Translations under genes and position numbers: made by a program
The notes under the pieces: generated by a model
Told to the model about the DNA's origin: nothing
The model's input: the letters and a program-made list of their open reading frames with translations, nothing else
The model's database searches: none
Assembly: GCF_006345805.1 (NCBI RefSeq)
Contig: NC_043001.1
Span: 76,880,001-76,944,000, forward strand
Direction of reading: 5' to 3'
Source: Octopus sinensis
Lineage: Eukaryota
DNA length: 64,000 bases
Part shown: piece after piece, positions 27,871 through 63,127 of the stretch
Layout of the letters: every line of letters starts with the position of its first letter
Position numbering within the stretch: the first letter of the stretch is position 1

Positions 27871-28579
27871 TAATAATAATAATAATTATTATTATTATTA
27901 ATTATTAATAATAATTAATTGAGAGTGAGATAGGTAGAGAAGGAAGTGGGAGTGTGAAAGATAAAGGTTCAGTTTTATTATTATTATTATACATACATAC
28001 ATAATAATAATAATAATAAGTAGGTGTAAACACATGAACAAAATAAAAATAAACAAAAACAAGTTACACAAACATATATAAACAGGAGATACAAATATTA
28101 TAGGCACTCCCCCCCCCCCACACACACACACACTAACTAAACTCTGGCTGAAATAAGATTAAAATTAATGTAAAAAATAACGCTGAAGCAAAGTAACACC
28201 AGATATATAGTGTGTGTTTTTATTGGCTAAACTGGCAAAATGACCATTCCTAAATACAACAATATCTGTTTCAACACACGATTTCTCATCAAAAATCTTG
28301 CAAAACAAATATATAAACGTAAGAATTTTAATCCTTTAGCATTTAAACCAGCTATGTCTGGCTCAAATATTCTATTTGTTTTATGTTTGAGCTAGCCAGA
28401 TCCAGCCTCTCACACTTATCCTACAATGTCATTCTAAACATAAATGTTACACCCTGCCTCCTAACTGGGTTTTGTAGTCTCACAAGCTGCTTGGTAACCT
28501 CACTAGTGGTGATGACATGAAAGAAAGCATTCAAACACACCATAAAGCGTTTGGCATTAGGAAGGACATCCAGCTGTTG

Positions 28580-46000: not shown

Positions 46001-47584
46001 ACTTTATGCTCGCTTTTTCTTGAGAAGACGAACATCTTATGGTCTCTTCGACATCAACAACACTAGATCTCTCCCTCTCTCTCCGCCTTTTCTTCTCTCT
46101 TTCTCTCCGACTCTCTCCCTCTTCTCTGTCTTTATTCCTACCTCTTTTTCTACACCTTCCTCTCTTTCTTCTCCTTCCTCTCGATGTTTCGTCTTCTTTG
46201 TGACTTGCCAATACTGTTTACCCAAAACGAAGCCTGACGCAAGCTAGATTACTGTCTATGAATGACTATATGCAAGATTGTATGTCACAACATTTCATAC
46301 CATGAGAAAAATTTGGCCAGACATGTTTCCACAGAACATTGGAAATGAATGACATTGTTTGTGTGACAGTGACTCTCATTTACAACCATTGAAGTATCAA
46401 GGCAAGGAGGCACATTTTCACACACACACACACACCACACACACACATGCCATTCTGAACCTAGAAACAAAACAAACATCATCTACAGCAATCATGTGAT
46501 GTCAATACGAGGTTACATACATACATAAGCAAACCCATACATACATACATACATACATACATACATACATACATACATACATACATACATACAACATACA
46601 TACATACACTGAACTATTGAGAAATCTGCTGTTACTCTATCCAGGTTACAAGTTCAGGTTTATACCTGTAATTACTGAGACACTGAATATGTGACACACT
46701 GCCTAAATACCAATCTTGAGAAATTAGGTTTCTCAAAACCAGAAAGGAGAAAGCTGATCTGAAGACTACAGATCAAAGCAATCACTGGAACTGTAAAAAT
46801 CTGTAAAACTTTCCAGAAATTTATCATTTGAGTATATATGAGCATGTCTAGACATGTAACTATATGCATGAGAATACATACATAAAACAAAACATACAAA
46901 TCTGCACATCTACATACATACAAAAAATATCCTGTTGATGTTGAAATTCCAATGAAGGAGCCTTGGATCTAGGTTAGATACCACCTCTTTTTCTATTAGC
47001 AAGCAATTTTTAAATAAAACTGAATAATAATAATATATATACTATAGGCTTCTTGCAGTTCCATCTGATTCATGGAGGGATGGAAAAGTAGATGCTAAAT
47101 GAAATGTGTATGTGTGTGTTTGTGTGTGTATATATATATAGACTAGTTACAGGATTAACTAGAATTTAGGCACATCAACAAGACTGAGTAGGTACCATAA
47201 TATTGAGTCCACAGTAAGGTAAAACAACCATGAGGTATCATTTGTTGGTATTATACTGTGGGCATGCATGTATATAGGTACCAAATCCAATATAAATCAT
47301 AGATCCAACTCAGGATTGGTTCCAAGTGTAGCATAGGTATAAAAAAGAACACAAATAGGGTATAAAATTTACTGCAGCTGTTTCGATAGCATTTTATTGA
47401 TGCATTCAAAGATTACATCACAACATAAAGCCACCATCTTCAAATAAAATTTTAAACATTTAAACAAGCCAGACAAAACCTAGATGACCAGTTCACCAAC
47501 TAGCATGATAAATAATTTATGATATTAGTTGGTGAATAGGTCATCTGCTAGGTTTTACCTTGCCTGTTAGTACATGTTTAAAAT

Positions 47585-47662
47585 TTTGTCTGAGGATGTA
47601 ATTTATGCTAGGATGTAATTATGAATGCATCAATAAAATATCACTGAAACAGCTGTAATAAG
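47585..47662 (+). ncRNA. Type I hammerhead ribozyme (diverged) in the right arm of a palindrome
   Basis: tttgt CTGAGGA(47590-96) tg...ca ct GAAAC agct GTA^ ataag, with palindromic stem III ACAGCUGU. Stems I and II are weak. A decayed mirror copy (TTGAAGA...GAAACAGCTGCA) lies on - at about 47368-47447. Confidence 0.65.
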
Positions 47663-48669
47663 TTTAAAACCTCATTTCTGTTCGTTTATATGTATATATA
47701 CCATCATCATTGTCATTTAACGTCTGTTTTCCACACTGGCATGGGTTGGATGGATTGACAGGAGTCAAGCAGCTAAAGGGTTGTTCAGGCTCCATGTCTG
47801 TTCTGGCATGGTTTCTACAGCTGGATGCCCTTTATAATGCCAACTACTTTACAGAGTATACTGAGTGCTTTTGTGCAACACCAGCATGGGTGCTTTTTAT
47901 GTGGCACCAGCACCTTTGAGCCCATGAGATTAGGAATGCTGAGCTGGAATGGGTGGCAGGGGGGCGAGCCTTTGTTGTCTGTTCATCTGCTCAGCATCTA
48001 GGGATATTTGCCATTGACTCAATAAATTCATTTGCTGAAATACACACACACATAACTTTATGATATGCATATGTATACATACACATACTTAAATGCATAC
48101 ATCCATATGTATGTATGTATGTGTGTGTGTATAAATATGATAGGGTGCAGTTTGAAGGGCTTAGAAACTTTACACATCTGAACTAAATACAGTTTTGATA
48201 TGACTTCAAACTGCATTCAGTTGTGGGGCTCAGGTTCATGAGTTCCAGAGTTTCTAAAAAGTATAGAACCATCTCTTAACCACTATTGTCCCCAGTTCTA
48301 CTCTGTCAGGGACCCAACAATTGGTTAATTAGCATAGTTGGGCTTGCTTCCCAGTGGATGTGAAGATAGGATTGAGCAGGACTCTGCAGAAGAAACCTTC
48401 ATGGTTTAAATGAGGGGAAGGTGGCTGCTTCAACACATCCTGGAGTGCAAAGAGCAGGGTGAAGTAAACAAAACATCTTGGTTATCCATTGCTGCTGTTG
48501 TCTCCATTCCAAGTCATTGAGGTCTGGCCTTGCCTCTGGTTTAAAGAGGGTCACAGATGAAAGGGTGAGGTTGATGAGGTGCAAATCATCTACTTCATAA
48601 TTAAAGTCACCACACAAGACATCAAGATGATTAAGAAGATCCTCATCATTTCTGCCTGCTTACCGCCTT

Positions 48670-49649: not shown

Positions 49650-51046
49650 AATCATGCAGTCTGTCAGACCACACATAGTGCATCACACATAGACATAATT
49701 CAAACAGAAAAGATAAATGCACACACACACACACATAAAAGCATATACACACATGTGCGTGTGTGTATATACAAGTCGCAGCACTAGCTTCATCAAATTC
49801 TAGTTTTCTTACAAACCACATACACAACATTTACACACACTCACACTCAGCACACACACAAATCACGTCACTACTTTCTTCACATTCTAGCTTTCAAACC
49901 ACATACACACATACTGCACACAGACACTGCACTCATGCATAACACACACACACACACGGCATCTCCCTCCCCATGCGCACACACATGTAGATTACCTGGG
50001 GACATGACCTTCCATTTGTAGCCAGAAAACTGCACTTTTTACGCTTATTTTATAACACGATTTGACAACCAAACTCACTCTCTCTACCCCCCCTCTCTCT
50101 CTCCACATTCACCCTCTCACTTTCCTTTGCTCTACTGCCTTTCTTTCTCTCTCTCTTTTATCTATAACGTGTACGTACCAGTCTTCAGTTCAGTCTATTT
50201 ATCTCCCACTCTCTAACAAATCTTCTTATCTGTATAGCTATATGCCTGTATATTGATTTGTCTGTCTGTTTTTGTATCTGTCTGTCTATCTCAGTCTATC
50301 TGCCGATGTCTCTGTGTGTCTGTCTGTCTCGCTGTCTATCCATGTCTGTCTGCCTCTCCCTCTCTGTTTATCTATCTGTCTCTCTCTCTCTCTCTCTCTG
50401 TTTGTCTGTTCATGTATCTCAGATTATGTGTTATTTTAAAGATTTTGTCTGGAGAAATGCACGTAGTTTATATTGAAAGATATATTATTTATATTATTAT
50501 ATGAATTCATTTATATTCATACTGATATTTATATTCATGGCATGTATTTCCTGTGTTGTGTAGAAACGACTGTAATTAAAGAATGTGGTATATGCATGCA
50601 TATATGTGTGTATGTACACACATACACACACACACATGCGCGCGCGCGCACACACAGTCCACTCTGCTCGTTGGTTGGTTGGTTGGTTGGTGTGAGGAAG
50701 GGCATCCAGCTGTAAAAATCCTGCCAAAACAGTCACAGAAGTTTGGTGCAGGCTTCTGTCTGACCGGCTCCTGTCAAACCATCCCACCCATGCCAGCACA
50801 GAAGCCGGATGTTTTAATGATGATGTTGATGATGATGATAGTGATGTGTGTATATATATATATATATTAATATAATATATATAATATATATATATATATA
50901 TATAATGTATGTATATATAAATCTTTAAAATGTTTCAGCCCAAAGGCTGCGGCCATGCTGGAGCACCACCGCTGAATATATATATATATATTTATGTATA
51001 TATGTATGTATGTATGTATGTATATATATATATATATGTATGTATG

Positions 51047-51078
<32 letters not shown>

Positions 51079-51297
51079 TATATATATGTATATATATATA
51101 TATGTATATACTAAGCAATAAGGGTTTAGCAACGAGTTGCCTTACCACATACCGAATTTAGAAATAGCAGTCAAAGGGTTATAGCTATTTCTTCTACAAA
51201 AAAGGGAGATCTCAGTAAAAACAGCATTTGGAAGGCAGACACAAAAAGGTAAGAGAGAATGAATTGACTGCAATCTATCATACATTTTTTTAGTTAT

Positions 51298-51409
51298 CCA
51301 CGGACGTACGTTTCGAAATCAAGTTTTAAGGAAAGCATAAGAATTAGATATTAAATATTAAATAATAAATAATTCTATCTTACCGAAACTTCTTTTCTCT
51401 TCAGCGTAG
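51298..51409 (-). ncRNA. Type I hammerhead ribozyme, unit 1 (repeated at 51900-52010, 52501-52611 and 53105-53216, all on -)
   Basis: CUACG-CUGAAGA-[83-nt stem II: GAAA/UUUC, AAGUUU/AAACUU, AGAAUUA/UAAUUCU]-GAAAC-GUAC-GUC^-CGUGG. Stem I is CUACG/CGUGG and stem III is the palindrome ACGUACGU. Confidence 0.85.
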
Positions 51410-53742
51410 AATACTATAATCATAAATGATTATATATTGAATTTTGAGATACCAGAAGGCACCAACTCCACTCAGTATCAGAGCGAGCTAGAATCCGCAA
51501 CTGGTATCACCGAATTCATTTGTGAATGAAACGATTGTGTCAACAGCCCCTTCCCACCCGCGTGTAGCCAAAACAAGATGCTGTGGTCATCTACTGAGAT
51601 AAAATATGGTTATCCGTAATAATGAAGGGTGAAATTAATTAATTTGGAAAAATTATCAATTACACCAAGTAGTCTTGCATGTAAAAGCCTCATTCGAGGA
51701 AAATTTAAGTAATACTAAGCAATAAGGGTTTAGCAACGAGTTGCCTTACCACATACCGAATTTAGAAATAGCAGTCAAAGGGTTATAGCTATTTCTCTAC
51801 AAAAAAGGGGGATCTCAGTAAAAACAGCATTTGGAAGGCAGACACAAACAGGTAAGAGAGAATGAATTGACTGCAATCTATCATACATTTTTTAGTTATC
51901 CACGGACGTACGTTTCGAAATCAAGTTTTAAGGAAAGCATAAGAATTAGATATTAAATATTAATAATAAATAATTCTATCTTACCGAAACTTCTTTTCTC
52001 TTCAGCGTAGAATACTATAATCATAAATGATTATATATTGAATTTTGAGATACCAGAAGGCACCAACTCCACTCAGTATCAGAGCGAGCTAGAATCCGCA
52101 ACTGGTATCACCGAATTCAATTTGTGAATGAAACGATTGTGTCAACAGCCCCTTCCCACCCGCGTGTAGCCAAAACAGATGCTGTGGTCATCTACCGAGA
52201 TAAAATATGGTTATCCGTAATAATGAAGGGTGAAATTAATTAATTTGGAAAAATATCAATTACACCAAGTAGTCTTCGGCATGTAAAAGCCTCATTCGAG
52301 GAAAATTTAAGTAATACTAAGCAATAAGGGTTTAGCAACGAGTTGCCTTACCACATACCGAATTTAGAAATAGCAGTCAAAGGGTTATAGCTATTTCTTC
52401 TACAAAAAAAGAGATCTCAGTAAAACAGCATTTGGAAGGCAGACACAAACAGGTAAGAGAGAATGAATTGACTGCAATCTATCATACATTTTTTTAGTAT
52501 CCACGGACGTACGTTTCGAAATCAAGTTTTAAGGAAAGCATAAGAATAGATATTAAATATTAAATAATAAATAATTCTATCTTACCGAAACTTCTTTTCT
52601 CTTCAGCGTAGAATACTATAATCATAAATGATTATATATTGAATTTTGAGATACCAGAAGGCACCAACTCCACTCAGTATCAGAGCGAGCTAGAATCCGC
52701 AACTGGTATCACCGATTCAATTTGTGAATGAAACGATTGTGTCAACAGCCCCTTGCCACCCGCGTGTAGCCAAAACAAGATGCTGTGGTCATCTACTGAG
52801 ATAAAATATGGTTATCCGTAATAATGAAGGGTGAAATTAATTAATTTGGAAAAATTATCAATTACACCAAGTAGTCTTCGGCATGTAAAAGCCTCATTCG
52901 AGGAAAATTTAAGTAATACTAAGCAATAAGGGTTTAGCAACGAGTTGCCTTACCACATACCGAATTTAGAAATAGCAGTCAAAGGGTTATAGCTATTCTT
53001 CTACAAAAAAGGGAGATCTCAGTAAAAACAGCATTTGGAAGGCAGACACAAACAGGTAAGATAGAATGAATTGACTGCAATCTATCATACATTTTTTTAG
53101 TTATCCACGGACGTACGTTTCGAAATCAAGTTTTAAGGAAAGCATAAGAATTAGATATTAAATATTAAATAATAAATAATTCTATCTTACCGAAACTTCT
53201 TTTCTCTTCAGCGTAGAATACTATAATCATAAATGATTATATATTGAATTTTGAGATACCAGAAGGCACCAACTCCACTCAGTATCAGAGCGAGCTAGAA
53301 TCCGCAACTGGTATCACCGAATTCAATTTGTGAATGAAACGATTGTGTCAACAGCCCCTTCCCACCGCGTGTAGCCAAAACAAGATGCTGTGGTCATCTA
53401 CTGAGATAAAATATGGTTATCCGTAATAATGAAGGGTGAAATTAATTTTGGAAAAATTATCAATTACACCAAGTAGTCTTCGGCATGTAAAAGCCTCATT
53501 CGAGGAAAATTTAAGTAATACTAAGCAATAAGGGTTTAGCAACGAGTTGCCTTACCACATACCGAATTTAGAAATAGCAGTCAAAGGGTTATAGCTATTC
53601 TTCTACAAAAAAGGAGATCTCAGTAAAAACAGCATTTGGAAGGCAGACACAAACAGGTAAGAGAGAATGAATTGACTGCAATCTATCATACATTTTTTTA
53701 GTTATCAAAATTCAATATATAATCATTTATGATTATAGTATT

Positions 53743-53857
53743 CTACGCTGAAGAGAGAGAAAAGAAGTTTCGGTAAGATAGAATTATTTATTATTTAATA
53801 TTTAATATCTAATTCTTATGCTTTCCTTAAAACTTGATTCGAAACGTACGTCCGTGG
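53743..53857 (+). ncRNA. Type I hammerhead ribozyme in the inverted copy
   Basis: ctacg CTGAAGA(53748-54) ... GAAA(53841-44) cgtac GTC^ cgtgg. Confidence 0.8.
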
Positions 53858-54136
53858 ATAACTAAAAAATGTATGATAGATTGCAGTCAATTCATTCTCT
53901 CTTACCTGTTTGTGTCTGCCTTCCAAATGCTGTTTTTACTGAGATCTCCCTTTTTGTAGAAGAAATAGCTATAACCTTTGACTGCTATTTCTAAATTCGG
54001 TATGTGGTAAGGCAACTCGTTGCTAAACCCTTATTGCTTAGTATTACTTAATTTTCCTCGAATGAGGCTTTTACATGCCGAAGACTACTTGGTGTAATTG
54101 ATAATTTTTCCAAATTAATTATTTCACCCTTCATTA

Positions 54137-54176
54137 TATATGTATATATGTATATATATATATATGTATATATGTA

Positions 54177-54210
<34 letters not shown>

Positions 54211-54660
54211 TATATATGTATATATGTATGTATATATATGCATATATGTATGTATATATATGCATATATGTATGTATATATATGCATATATATATGTATG
54301 TATGTATGTATATATGTATGTATATATGCATGTATATATGTATATATATGTATATATGTATATATATGTATATATGTATGTGCATATATATGTATATATG
54401 TATGTGCATATATATGTATATATGTATGTGTATATATATATATGTTTATATGTATGTGCATATATATGTATATATGTATGTGTATATATATATATGTTTA
54501 TATGTATGTGTATATATATATATGTTTATATGTATGTGTATATATATGTATATGTTTATATGTATGTGCATATATATGTATATGTATATATGTATGTGCA
54601 TATATATGTATATGTATATATGTATGTGTATATATATATATGTATATATATGTTTATATG

Positions 54661-54697
<37 letters not shown>

Positions 54698-55104
54698 TAG
54701 TAATACCAGCGATTATAATTATTTTTATTTTATCGCAATTTGATTTGTTTATATATATATATTATATATATATATATATATATGTTTATATGTATGTGTA
54801 TATTATGTATATATGTTTATATGTATGTGTATATATATGTATATATGTTATATGTATGTGTATATATATGTATATATATGTTTATATGTATGTGTATATA
54901 TATATGTATATATGTATTTGTATATATATATGTATATATGTATGTGTATATATATATATGTATATATGTATGTGTATATACATATTTGTATATATATATA
55001 TGTATATATGTATGTGTATATACATATTTGTATATATATATATGTATATATGTATGTGTATATACATATTTGTATATATATATGTATATATGTATGTATA
55101 TATG

Positions 55105-55145
<41 letters not shown>
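54137..55145. repeat. 1-kb (TA)/(TATG) compound microsatellite
   Basis: Read directly from the sequence; source of the long Y/I/C/M pseudo-ORFs. Confidence 0.95.
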
Positions 55146-61818: not shown

Positions 61819-62109
61819 TACAGAACTGTTAGTTCTTAATAAGTCTTAACACCACATCCATCACATCTCTCTCTCGTTATATATTTGAGCAATAGGTTTA
61901 CTTAAGTCTGCATTTTTTCATTTCTGATTGGATATTAGAGAATTTAGAGTGGCTTACATTTTGGAAATGTAATTTTTCAGTAAACTGATGCCCTGTCCTA
62001 TTAGCATCATCTGCATCCTCCCCCTCCCCCTACAGATCCACATCATACTAGCCACATTACATTTCTTCATTACACCTCCTAACTCCAACAGTTCCACATT
62101 AACCCCTCC

Positions 62110-63035
62110 ACATAGCATTTCTACATTAACCCCTCCCCCACACCACATTTCCACATCAAACCCTCCCCACACCACATGTCCACATCAACCCCTCTCCCAT
62201 GCATTTCCACATCGATCCCTCTCTACACCACATTTCCACATCAAACCCTCCCCACACCACATGTCCACATCAAACCCTCTCTACACCACATTTCCACATC
62301 AAACCCTCCCCACACTACATGTTCACATCAACCCCTCTCCCATGCATTTCCACACCAACCCCTCTCCCATGCATTTCCACACCAACCCCTCTCCCATACA
62401 TTTCCACATCAACCCCTCTCCCATGCATTTCCACATCAAACCCTCCCCACACCACATTTCCACATCAAACCCTCCCCACACCACATTTCCACATCAAACC
62501 CTCCCCACACCACATGTCCACACCAACCCCTCTCCCATGCATTTCCACATCAAACCCACCCCACACCACATGTCCACATCAACCCCTCTCCCATGCATTT
62601 CCACATCAAATCCTCCCCACACCACATTTCCACATCAAACCCTCCCCACACCACATGTCCACATCAACCCCCTCCCATGCATTTCCACATCAAACCCTCC
62701 CCACACCACATTTCCACATCAAACCCTCCCCACACCACATTTCCACATCAAACCTCCCCACACCACATGTCCACACCAACCCCTCTCCCATGCATTTCCA
62801 CATCAAACCCACCCCACACCACATGTCCACATCAACCCCTCTCCCATGCATTTCCACATCAAATCCTCCCCACACCACATTTCCACATCAAACCCTCCCC
62901 ACACCACATGTCCACATCAACCCCTCTCCCATGCATTTCCACATCAAACCCTCTCTACACCACATTTCCACATTAACCCCTCCCCCACACCACATTTCCA
63001 CACAAATCCCTCCCCACATCACATTTCCACATTTA
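62110..63035. repeat. Compound C-rich minisatellite (27-29 bp units)
   Basis: Interleaved units ACATTTCCACATCAAACCCTCCCCACACC and GCATTTCCACA(T/C)CAACCCCTCTCCCAT, more than 30 copies. Confidence 0.95.
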
Positions 63036-63055
63036 ACATTCCTCCACATTGGCCA

Positions 63056-63127
63056 CCCCATGTGGTCTAGTGGTTAGGATTCCTGGCTTTCACCCAGGCG
63101 ACCCAGGTTTGATTCCCGGCATAGGAA
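63056..63127 (+). pseudogene. tRNA-Glu(TTC), probably a pseudogene
   Basis: 72-nt cloverleaf with A-box TGGTCTAGTGG and anticodon arm cctgg-ctTTCac-ccagg (TTC 63089-63091). It has two acceptor-stem mismatches, one T-stem mismatch and T-loop TTTGA instead of TTCGA. Confidence 0.85.

Follow-up and report, generated by a model that had tools for sequence, protein, structure and literature searches.

Head-to-head copies of a long hammerhead repeat in Octopus sinensis suggest that one RNA is primed twice in TA-rich microsatellites

Does the point at which an inserted repeat breaks off mark the place where a ribozyme cut its RNA? The question is raised by a locus in a stretch of 64,000 nucleotides of the Octopus sinensis genome, referred to here as the window, in which a tandem array with a predicted hammerhead in its units stops a few nucleotides from a predicted cut site and is followed directly by an inverted copy. 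The original prediction read this arrangement as the footprint of reverse transcription running to the end of a ribozyme-cleaved RNA, primed from both strands of a break in the microsatellite, and as indirect evidence that the ribozyme is active in vivo. The features of the locus are listed below with the basis of each in brackets. Throughout, monomer positions are counted from the base that directly follows the predicted GUC cut, which is position 1.

50976..51107, no strand, left (TA)n/(TATG)n target microsatellite (sequence)
51108..53706, minus strand, left arm of ~4.3 tandem units (sequence)
53104..53217, minus strand, predicted type I hammerhead in the final complete left-arm unit (sequence, fold, motif scan)
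53705..53706, no strand, head-to-head junction with 2-nt microhomology, TC (sequence)
53707..54137, plus strand, right (inverted) arm (sequence)
53742..53858, plus strand, intact predicted hammerhead within the right arm, its cut at 53852|53853 read through (sequence)
54138..55145, no strand, right TA-rich microsatellite (sequence)

The left arm stops at ...GTTATC at 53706, where intact units continue CACG^GAC, and the 4 nt up to the predicted cut are missing, as had been claimed. Because the TC at 53705-53706 matches both arms the distance to the cut is 4-6 nt; the inner (RNA 5′) end is position 5, or position 7 if TC is assigned to the right arm. The inverted copy does start directly at 53707, and the right arm extends to 54137. 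Both outer (RNA 3′) ends are joined to (TA)n, again as described, and both flanks are TA-rich microsatellite; target-site duplications are not resolvable inside (TA)n. The outer ends of the two arms differ. That of the left arm is position 193, in the short class defined below, while that of the right arm is position 286, in the long (‘tail’) class, the short-end site having been passed near 54044. Four intact predicted cut sites are traversed by the left arm (51302|51303, 51904|51905, 52505|52506 and 53109|53110) and one by the right arm (53852|53853), the inner end of which lies at position 458-460, ~143 nt from a cut.

The unit has a period of 602-604 at this locus and of 607 in the cleanest copies elsewhere, and units run head to tail without terminal repeats. 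Each contains a stem I (UCUACG/CGUGGA) that in extended form closes at position 12, the core CUGAAGA, an AU-rich stem II of ~90 nt, GAAA, and a helix III of one pair with a palindromic GUAC cap, followed by the GUC^ cut. The hammerhead was called from core motifs and stems, and the core motifs and stem I are present in every complete unit (sequence, fold and motif scan). The folding z-scores of the predicted hammerhead are weak (-1.1 and -1.8), and Rfam in gathering and E-value modes returned no hammerhead match at the focal repeat. In older relatives the core is kept and stem I is altered in pairs (CCTACG/CGTAGG, TCTGAG/CTCAAA and GTTGAG/CTCAAA). Metazoan type I hammerheads with a palindromic loop 3 have a short helix III, and efficient cleavage is expected of them only as a dimer in tandem repeats (PMC4209133, in its accessible part). 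With its short helix III and palindromic loop the octopus hammerhead would be of this dimer-dependent form, and activity is predicted; its helix II is much longer than in the hammerheads described there.

By its sequence, the focal repeat is to be classed as an animal non-LTR retrozyme with Penelope-type ends and an unusually long unit. There is a predicted hammerhead in each tandem unit, no coding for RT or endonuclease, and a dispersed series of copies from monomers to multimers; the inverted 5′-truncated copy, the one-sided tail and the AT-rich target are those of Penelope-type insertions mobilised in trans. The element contains no ORF for RT plus GIY-YIG, which sets it apart from autonomous Penelope-like elements, and a tblastn search with two RT+GIY-YIG proteins from the genome found no match in the window. 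Publications exist on non-LTR retrozymes, on their circles and on how they are connected with Penelope elements, and movement via circular RNA with Penelope-like helpers has been proposed for them (PMC7229834; bioRxiv 10.64898/2026.07.22.740005, both as far as their accessible text extends). Like those retrozymes, the octopus repeat is a non-coding, low-GC, dispersed tandem repeat with one type I hammerhead per unit; unlike them, it has a unit of 602-607 bp and the long stem II, the range of 150-450 bp reported in the same sources being descriptive rather than mechanistic. Both the class and the end architecture are already known, and the long unit makes this repeat a new member.

Units of one array differ by 0.20% in substitutions, whereas those of different arrays differ by 1.39% (165 units from 42 loci). 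Near-identity of this kind would suit a repeatedly copied circle, and also a homogeneous source array. A periodicity of the multimeric-circle kind was sought and rejected, edit distance by lag having no period in 11 long arms. In one 12-unit array (L058) a CpG C>T change in the hammerhead core recurs every five units exactly (G000:C10645:43549, 46574 and 49589), and the other differences in that array have no such period.

Which enzyme might move such a repeat? The genome holds young families with intact ORFs of 775-781 aa that encode RT together with a GIY-YIG domain at the C terminus, the RT scores lying just under the Pfam cut-off. There are 5029 GIY-YIG candidates, of which 150 were scored and 50 examined (30 loci and 20 longer stretches). 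The unit was absent from the own termini of all 50 of these loci, the only matches being separate insertions of relatives. It is because of the end pattern that we infer a probable mobilisation by a Penelope-like element. Three of the RT+GIY-YIG elements (L221:674-4375, L224 and L239) have a separate ORF of 470-479 aa that overlaps the start of the 781-aa ORF.

How general is the head-to-head form? In the genome of 2.72 Gb there are 1358 first-look candidates for the unit, and exact junctions of an end with (TA)n number at least 433 for short ends and at least 644 for long ends. In total 160 loci were retrieved, divided into three sets. The first, set A, comprised the 40 best full-unit matches and is biased toward long arrays, set B the first 80 short-end junctions outside set A, and set C 40 long-end-junction loci on contig C1 outside sets A and B. 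Arms of <89% identity or <25 nt were excluded before counting, together with six odd pieces (L045, L148, L149, L186 and two in L187), and L091 and L171 were counted as one insertion. The assembly carries 1-3% indel noise within these arrays. The 160 loci hold 166 young insertions with arms up to 12 units long; 102 are two-armed and head-to-head and 64 are one-armed, and head-to-head is therefore the normal form of the family. An older copy (L067, ~80% identity) has the same two-arm layout. Among the odd pieces, L149:506-2057 is a duplicated block with an insertion inside, and L186:7051-7498 and L187:504-910 have complex junctions with templated repeats.

The outer ends of these insertions fall into two classes, a short class at positions 187-203 (mostly 193) and a long class at positions 286-308 (mostly 294, 297 and 301), and both use TA microhomology. 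In the two-armed insertions one end of each class is normally combined: 94 of 102 are short+long, three are short+short and none is long+long, and of the five that are long+odd two in fact carry a short end masked by noise or a deletion, while a third has an assembly gap. The same holds for set A, which was not selected by end, where 25 of 27 combine short with long and no insertion has both ends in one class. Among the lone arms 55 are short, eight long and one odd, and one-armed insertions account for 40/80 short-anchored loci against 4/53 long ends on contig C1. Because lone arms are nearly always short, we infer that the short site (~193) is primed first as the primary event, and that the long site is used nearly only as its partner. 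That part of the original prediction in which both strands of a (TA)n break act as primers is well supported, both by the 94/102 short+long insertions and by the haplotypes common to the two arms that are described below.

We turn now to the inner ends. Plotted against the GUC site for the 160 loci, the inner truncation points are widely scattered. They occur across the whole unit, with hot spots at 12-17, 60-85, 96-115 and 440-475, and the hot spots at 51-125, away from the cut, are equal to or larger than the one near it. Of 380 passes that entered position 25, 27 stopped within 1-25, the other 353 continuing through the cut (the counts use 257 of 262 arms, five with odd outer ends having been left out). 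Because the inner ends are so scattered and 353/380 passes cross the cut, the single 4-nt distance in the focal array proves little. The plot also contains a one-sided step after the cut that is moderately favourable to the prediction, in that 2 of the 353 read-through passes stopped at 578-602 (Fisher p=1.6e-6, the arms not being independent).

The step persists in a set of 217 independent arms, from which both focal arms and the short arm of each of 38 coupled pairs were omitted. Here 23 ends fall at 1-25, where 9.2 would be expected, and 2 at 578-602, where the expectation is 8.8; the ends at 1-25 divide between sets A, B and C as 9, 10 and 4, against 2.8, 4.1 and 2.1 expected. The ratio of ends after and before the cut is 14:1 in the 153 arms fetched later (sets B and C) and 10:0 in the 95 arms longer than one unit. 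Among the 602 boundaries of the unit the cut ranks 2, 2, 2, 3, 3 and 1 for counting intervals of 15, 20, 25, 30, 40 and 50 nt, ranks that are not equivalent to p-values as the intervals overlap and their size was not set in advance. For the same six intervals the ranks are 1, 2, 10, 1, 2 and 1 in sets B and C only, and 2, 1, 3, 4, 6 and 1 in arms longer than one unit; with a 10-nt interval they are 49, 26 and 13 for all arms, sets B and C, and the longer arms, respectively. With all arms, and over intervals of 15-50 nt, the top boundary always lies at 599-1.

Immediately beside the cut the numbers are small: positions 1-8 hold 6 ends where 2.9 are expected (p=0.07), and position 1 itself holds 2 where 0.4 are expected (p=0.05). 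One insertion (L181) has both arms starting exactly at position 1 with a 4-nt insert between them. A genome-wide check for the exact pattern with a non-C before position 1 found 13 places, made up of four true arm ends in three insertions, seven single-C losses and two substitutions; two upstream control positions gave one true end in 10 places and one in four. One C is missing at a cut-site internal junction in L271, L272, L275, L277, L278, L280 and L282, and this loss at seven internal junctions may be either a ligation scar or a homopolymer error.

Might these ends arise on uncut RNA? In a twin-primed insertion the excess near the cut could come from stalling of RT at the foot of stem I or from slippage in an A-run, in which case the 4-nt distance would be coincidental. 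As extended stem I closes at 12, the A-run at 12-17 is its foot, and 14 of the 27 ends at 1-25 lie in this run or at its edge; a T-run at 99-104 holds 21 ends. The 353 of 380 passes that cross the cut point the same way, as does the in vitro behaviour of the element from Anolis, for which cleavage was dispensable (PMC11167929, in the part accessible). The position of the ends argues otherwise. The best boundary is at 599-1 and not at 12, and those ends closest to the cut lie at positions 1, 1, 1, 3, 5, 5, 7 and 8, while on the other side a single end lies at 600 and 580-599 is empty. Moreover three other A-runs have 1-2 ends each, and helix entries are generally without enrichment. Helix entry was rejected as a general cause of the hot spots (ratios of 0.85, 0.95 and 1.03) and kept locally for 12-17; among arms past the cut the ratio is 1.43, a value matched by 40 of 562 shifts. 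Stalling or slippage on uncut RNA thus seems an unlikely source of the step.

We consider instead that in about 1 pass in 15 the template likely ends at the ribozyme cut, 0-25 nt being lost in joining, and that most templates are likely to be ligated or uncut at that site. The pile-up of inner ends just past the predicted cut suggests that the RNA is cleaved in the animal. It follows that the claim of reverse transcription to the end of a cleaved RNA stands as a population trend (23 ends against 2) and is weak where it relied on the distance at the focal junction; similarly, ribozyme activity in vivo is suggested by the population step, a single copy being no proof. For the focal left arm, we rate the chance that its inner end marks a ribozyme-cut RNA as somewhat better than even.

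Were the two arms copied from one template? At 12 common polymorphic sites the minor alleles are shared and unshared in a ratio of 33:0 in the 38 coupled pairs and 65:4 in 55 uncoupled pairs, for which shuffling gives shared fractions of 0.24 and 0.12, respectively. Rare variants are shared in 9 cases against 0.3 expected, with 36 unshared. In pairs with both arms short the inner ends are ≤15 nt apart in 31 of 38, where 20,000 shuffles gave 10.5 on average and never more than 21, while in pairs with both arms crossing a cut they are as close in only 5 of 43. Of 93 junctions, 45 overlap by at least 1 nt, 13 are blunt and 35 have inserts. Two primings on one RNA fit the shared alleles and the geometry best. 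A shared haplotype cannot distinguish a single RNA molecule from a pair of RNAs derived from the same source locus, and for the uncoupled pairs two such RNAs may have been used in place of a single molecule.

Shared alleles would likewise result from fold-back copying, in which there is one priming, the cDNA folds back and copies itself, and the endonuclease resolves the hairpin at a second site. Such a process accounts for the coincident inner ends as well as for the shared haplotype, and several junctions are palindromic (L101, L150 and L152). Self-priming with nuclease resolution has indeed been proposed for Penelope elements (PMC3846280 and PMC8557442, in their accessible parts). The geometry required for one arm to be copied from the other is found in 62 of 94 pairs, including the focal locus, and a further 19 miss it by ≤15 nt. 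In the other 13, however, containment is violated by >40 nt and the process is impossible. It is more often the short arm that contains the loop: of the coupled pairs, 19 have a short arm that extends beyond the long one, 11 have the reverse, and eight have arms of equal reach. Lone arms are of the short class, yet a short-first cDNA (<193 nt) would have no template for the tail. We therefore regard fold-back copying as improbable, more so than stalling on uncut RNA, and retain two primings on one RNA as the better account.

An assembly or chimeric-read artefact at the focal junction, or a later rearrangement, might be suspected from the long-read-type indel noise in the arrays, but this is very improbable since the two arms lack mirror symmetry about the junction and differ both in their outer ends and in the flanks outside the microsatellites, and the locus follows the short+long rule kept by 94 of 102 two-armed insertions, each of which has a junction of its own. 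A fold-back read, the error that the original prediction had recognised as a danger, is unlikely for these same reasons of asymmetry, and the focal feature is confirmed as a real two-armed insertion.

Our preferred reading, to which we attach moderate confidence, is that the locus is a copy of a non-coding hammerhead repeat for which a Penelope-type enzyme primed one RNA twice, once on each nicked strand of (TA)n, and that the left arm stopped at or near the cut end of the RNA. The GIY-YIG nuclease of the helper would nick both strands of (TA)n. A first RT would start at ~193 as the primary event, and a second at ~286-301 on the same RNA. Both would copy upstream through ligated or uncut ribozyme sites, the template being either a circle or an uncut multimer, until each stopped at a stall, at a break or, in ~1 pass in 15, at a ribozyme-cut 5′ end, with 0-25 nt lost. 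The two cDNA 3′ ends would then be joined head to head by microhomology end joining. Deletion at the centres of the palindromes after insertion could blur the inner ends. A more specific version, which we offer tentatively as falling rather short of an even chance, is that a Penelope-type RT dimer would load one retrozyme RNA at two fixed sites, one per strand, the short site first and the tail second, and would roll through ligated hammerheads until the ribozyme re-opens the template.

LINE-1 elements provide a familiar case of twin priming. There a single RNA is primed from two nicks in the target, and the two cDNAs are then linked through microhomology in head-to-head orientation; the second site varies, and the arms have no overlap. 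The octopus repeat differs in having both sites fixed, with arms that copy the same sequence. Penelope-like elements form inverted 5′-truncated copies, with a tail of 30-40 bp often at one end, palindromes at junctions and microsatellite targets (PMC3846280 and PMC8557442, as accessible). The octopus repeat resembles the endonuclease-positive members in its head-to-head truncated copy, one-sided extension, junction palindromes or microhomology, and microsatellite target. It is unlike them in lacking an ORF and in its tail of ~95-108 nt against 30-40, and the pairing that is called ‘optional’ for those elements is near-strict here, with arms that are multi-unit arrays.

A biochemical comparison is with Poseidon of Anolis carolinensis, studied in vitro (PMC11167929, accessible part). 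Its RT, a predicted dimer, cuts and extends both strands of AT-rich DNA, and there are two internal RT start sites downstream of the hammerhead that bound the tail. No start-site difference between strands was reported, ribozyme cleavage was not needed, and according to the same part of that source there were no RNA-seq reads ending at the cut. In contrast, in the octopus genomic copies each arm uses a single site, and the ends form a step at the cut. In the accessible text of the retrozyme papers we found no account of arms in inverted orientation, of outer ends at fixed sites, of targeting to TA or of ends at the cut; the words ‘inverted’ and ‘microsatellite’ have 0 occurrences in that of PMC7229834, and are incidental only in that of bioRxiv 10.64898/2026.07.22.740005. 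Within a mostly freely readable literature, taken without supplements, we likewise found no paper that describes a strict pairing of short with long ends, a template common to both arms, or a step at the cut. A supplementary figure of PMC11167929 on genomic ends, outside that comparison, may bear on the novelty of these patterns.

The origin of inverted tailed Penelope insertions and the cleavage of hammerheads in vivo are both stated as open in the accessible parts of PMC8557442, PMC3846280 and PMC11167929. The focal junction matters little alone, but the family to which it belongs is young, with hundreds of near-identical copies, and so makes predictions that can be counted: a single start site on each strand, a template common to the two arms, and templates of which a minority end at the cut. 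It provides a sharp and testable model of Penelope-type twin priming. If the two-site dimer were to prove correct, genomic copies would record the rule that creates the Penelope ‘tail’, and also the in vivo hammerhead cleavage that was undetected in one in vitro study.

Relatives of the unit occur more widely. Older ones of 70-80% identity (L108:3147-3890, L074:1818-1870, L067:1870-2424, L155:1440-1820 and L113:903-1061) share chiefly unit positions 100-300, which are conserved at ~70% in older relatives, and the one in L108 repeats every 568 bp and carries a different hammerhead. A related short family (L213:2616-2838 and L241-L270) forms head-to-head stubs of ~250 bp in (TA)n with the same layout, and has 2480 first-look candidates, a number that is query-biased. 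In the flanks of L031-L260, unrelated repeats contained >30 additional, distinct contexts that resemble type I hammerheads. In the window itself, the motif scan found further type I hammerhead-like motifs on the plus strand at ~47584-47663 and, with an altered core, at ~50443-50580. A 25-nt match to the unit at 27896-27920 (E 2e-4) is probably an old relative. Finally, a tRNA-like gene lies at 63056-63127 on the plus strand (Rfam, 50 bits), with several broken pairs and an anticodon read as UUC, and is adjoined by a 29/56-bp minisatellite at 62032-63038.
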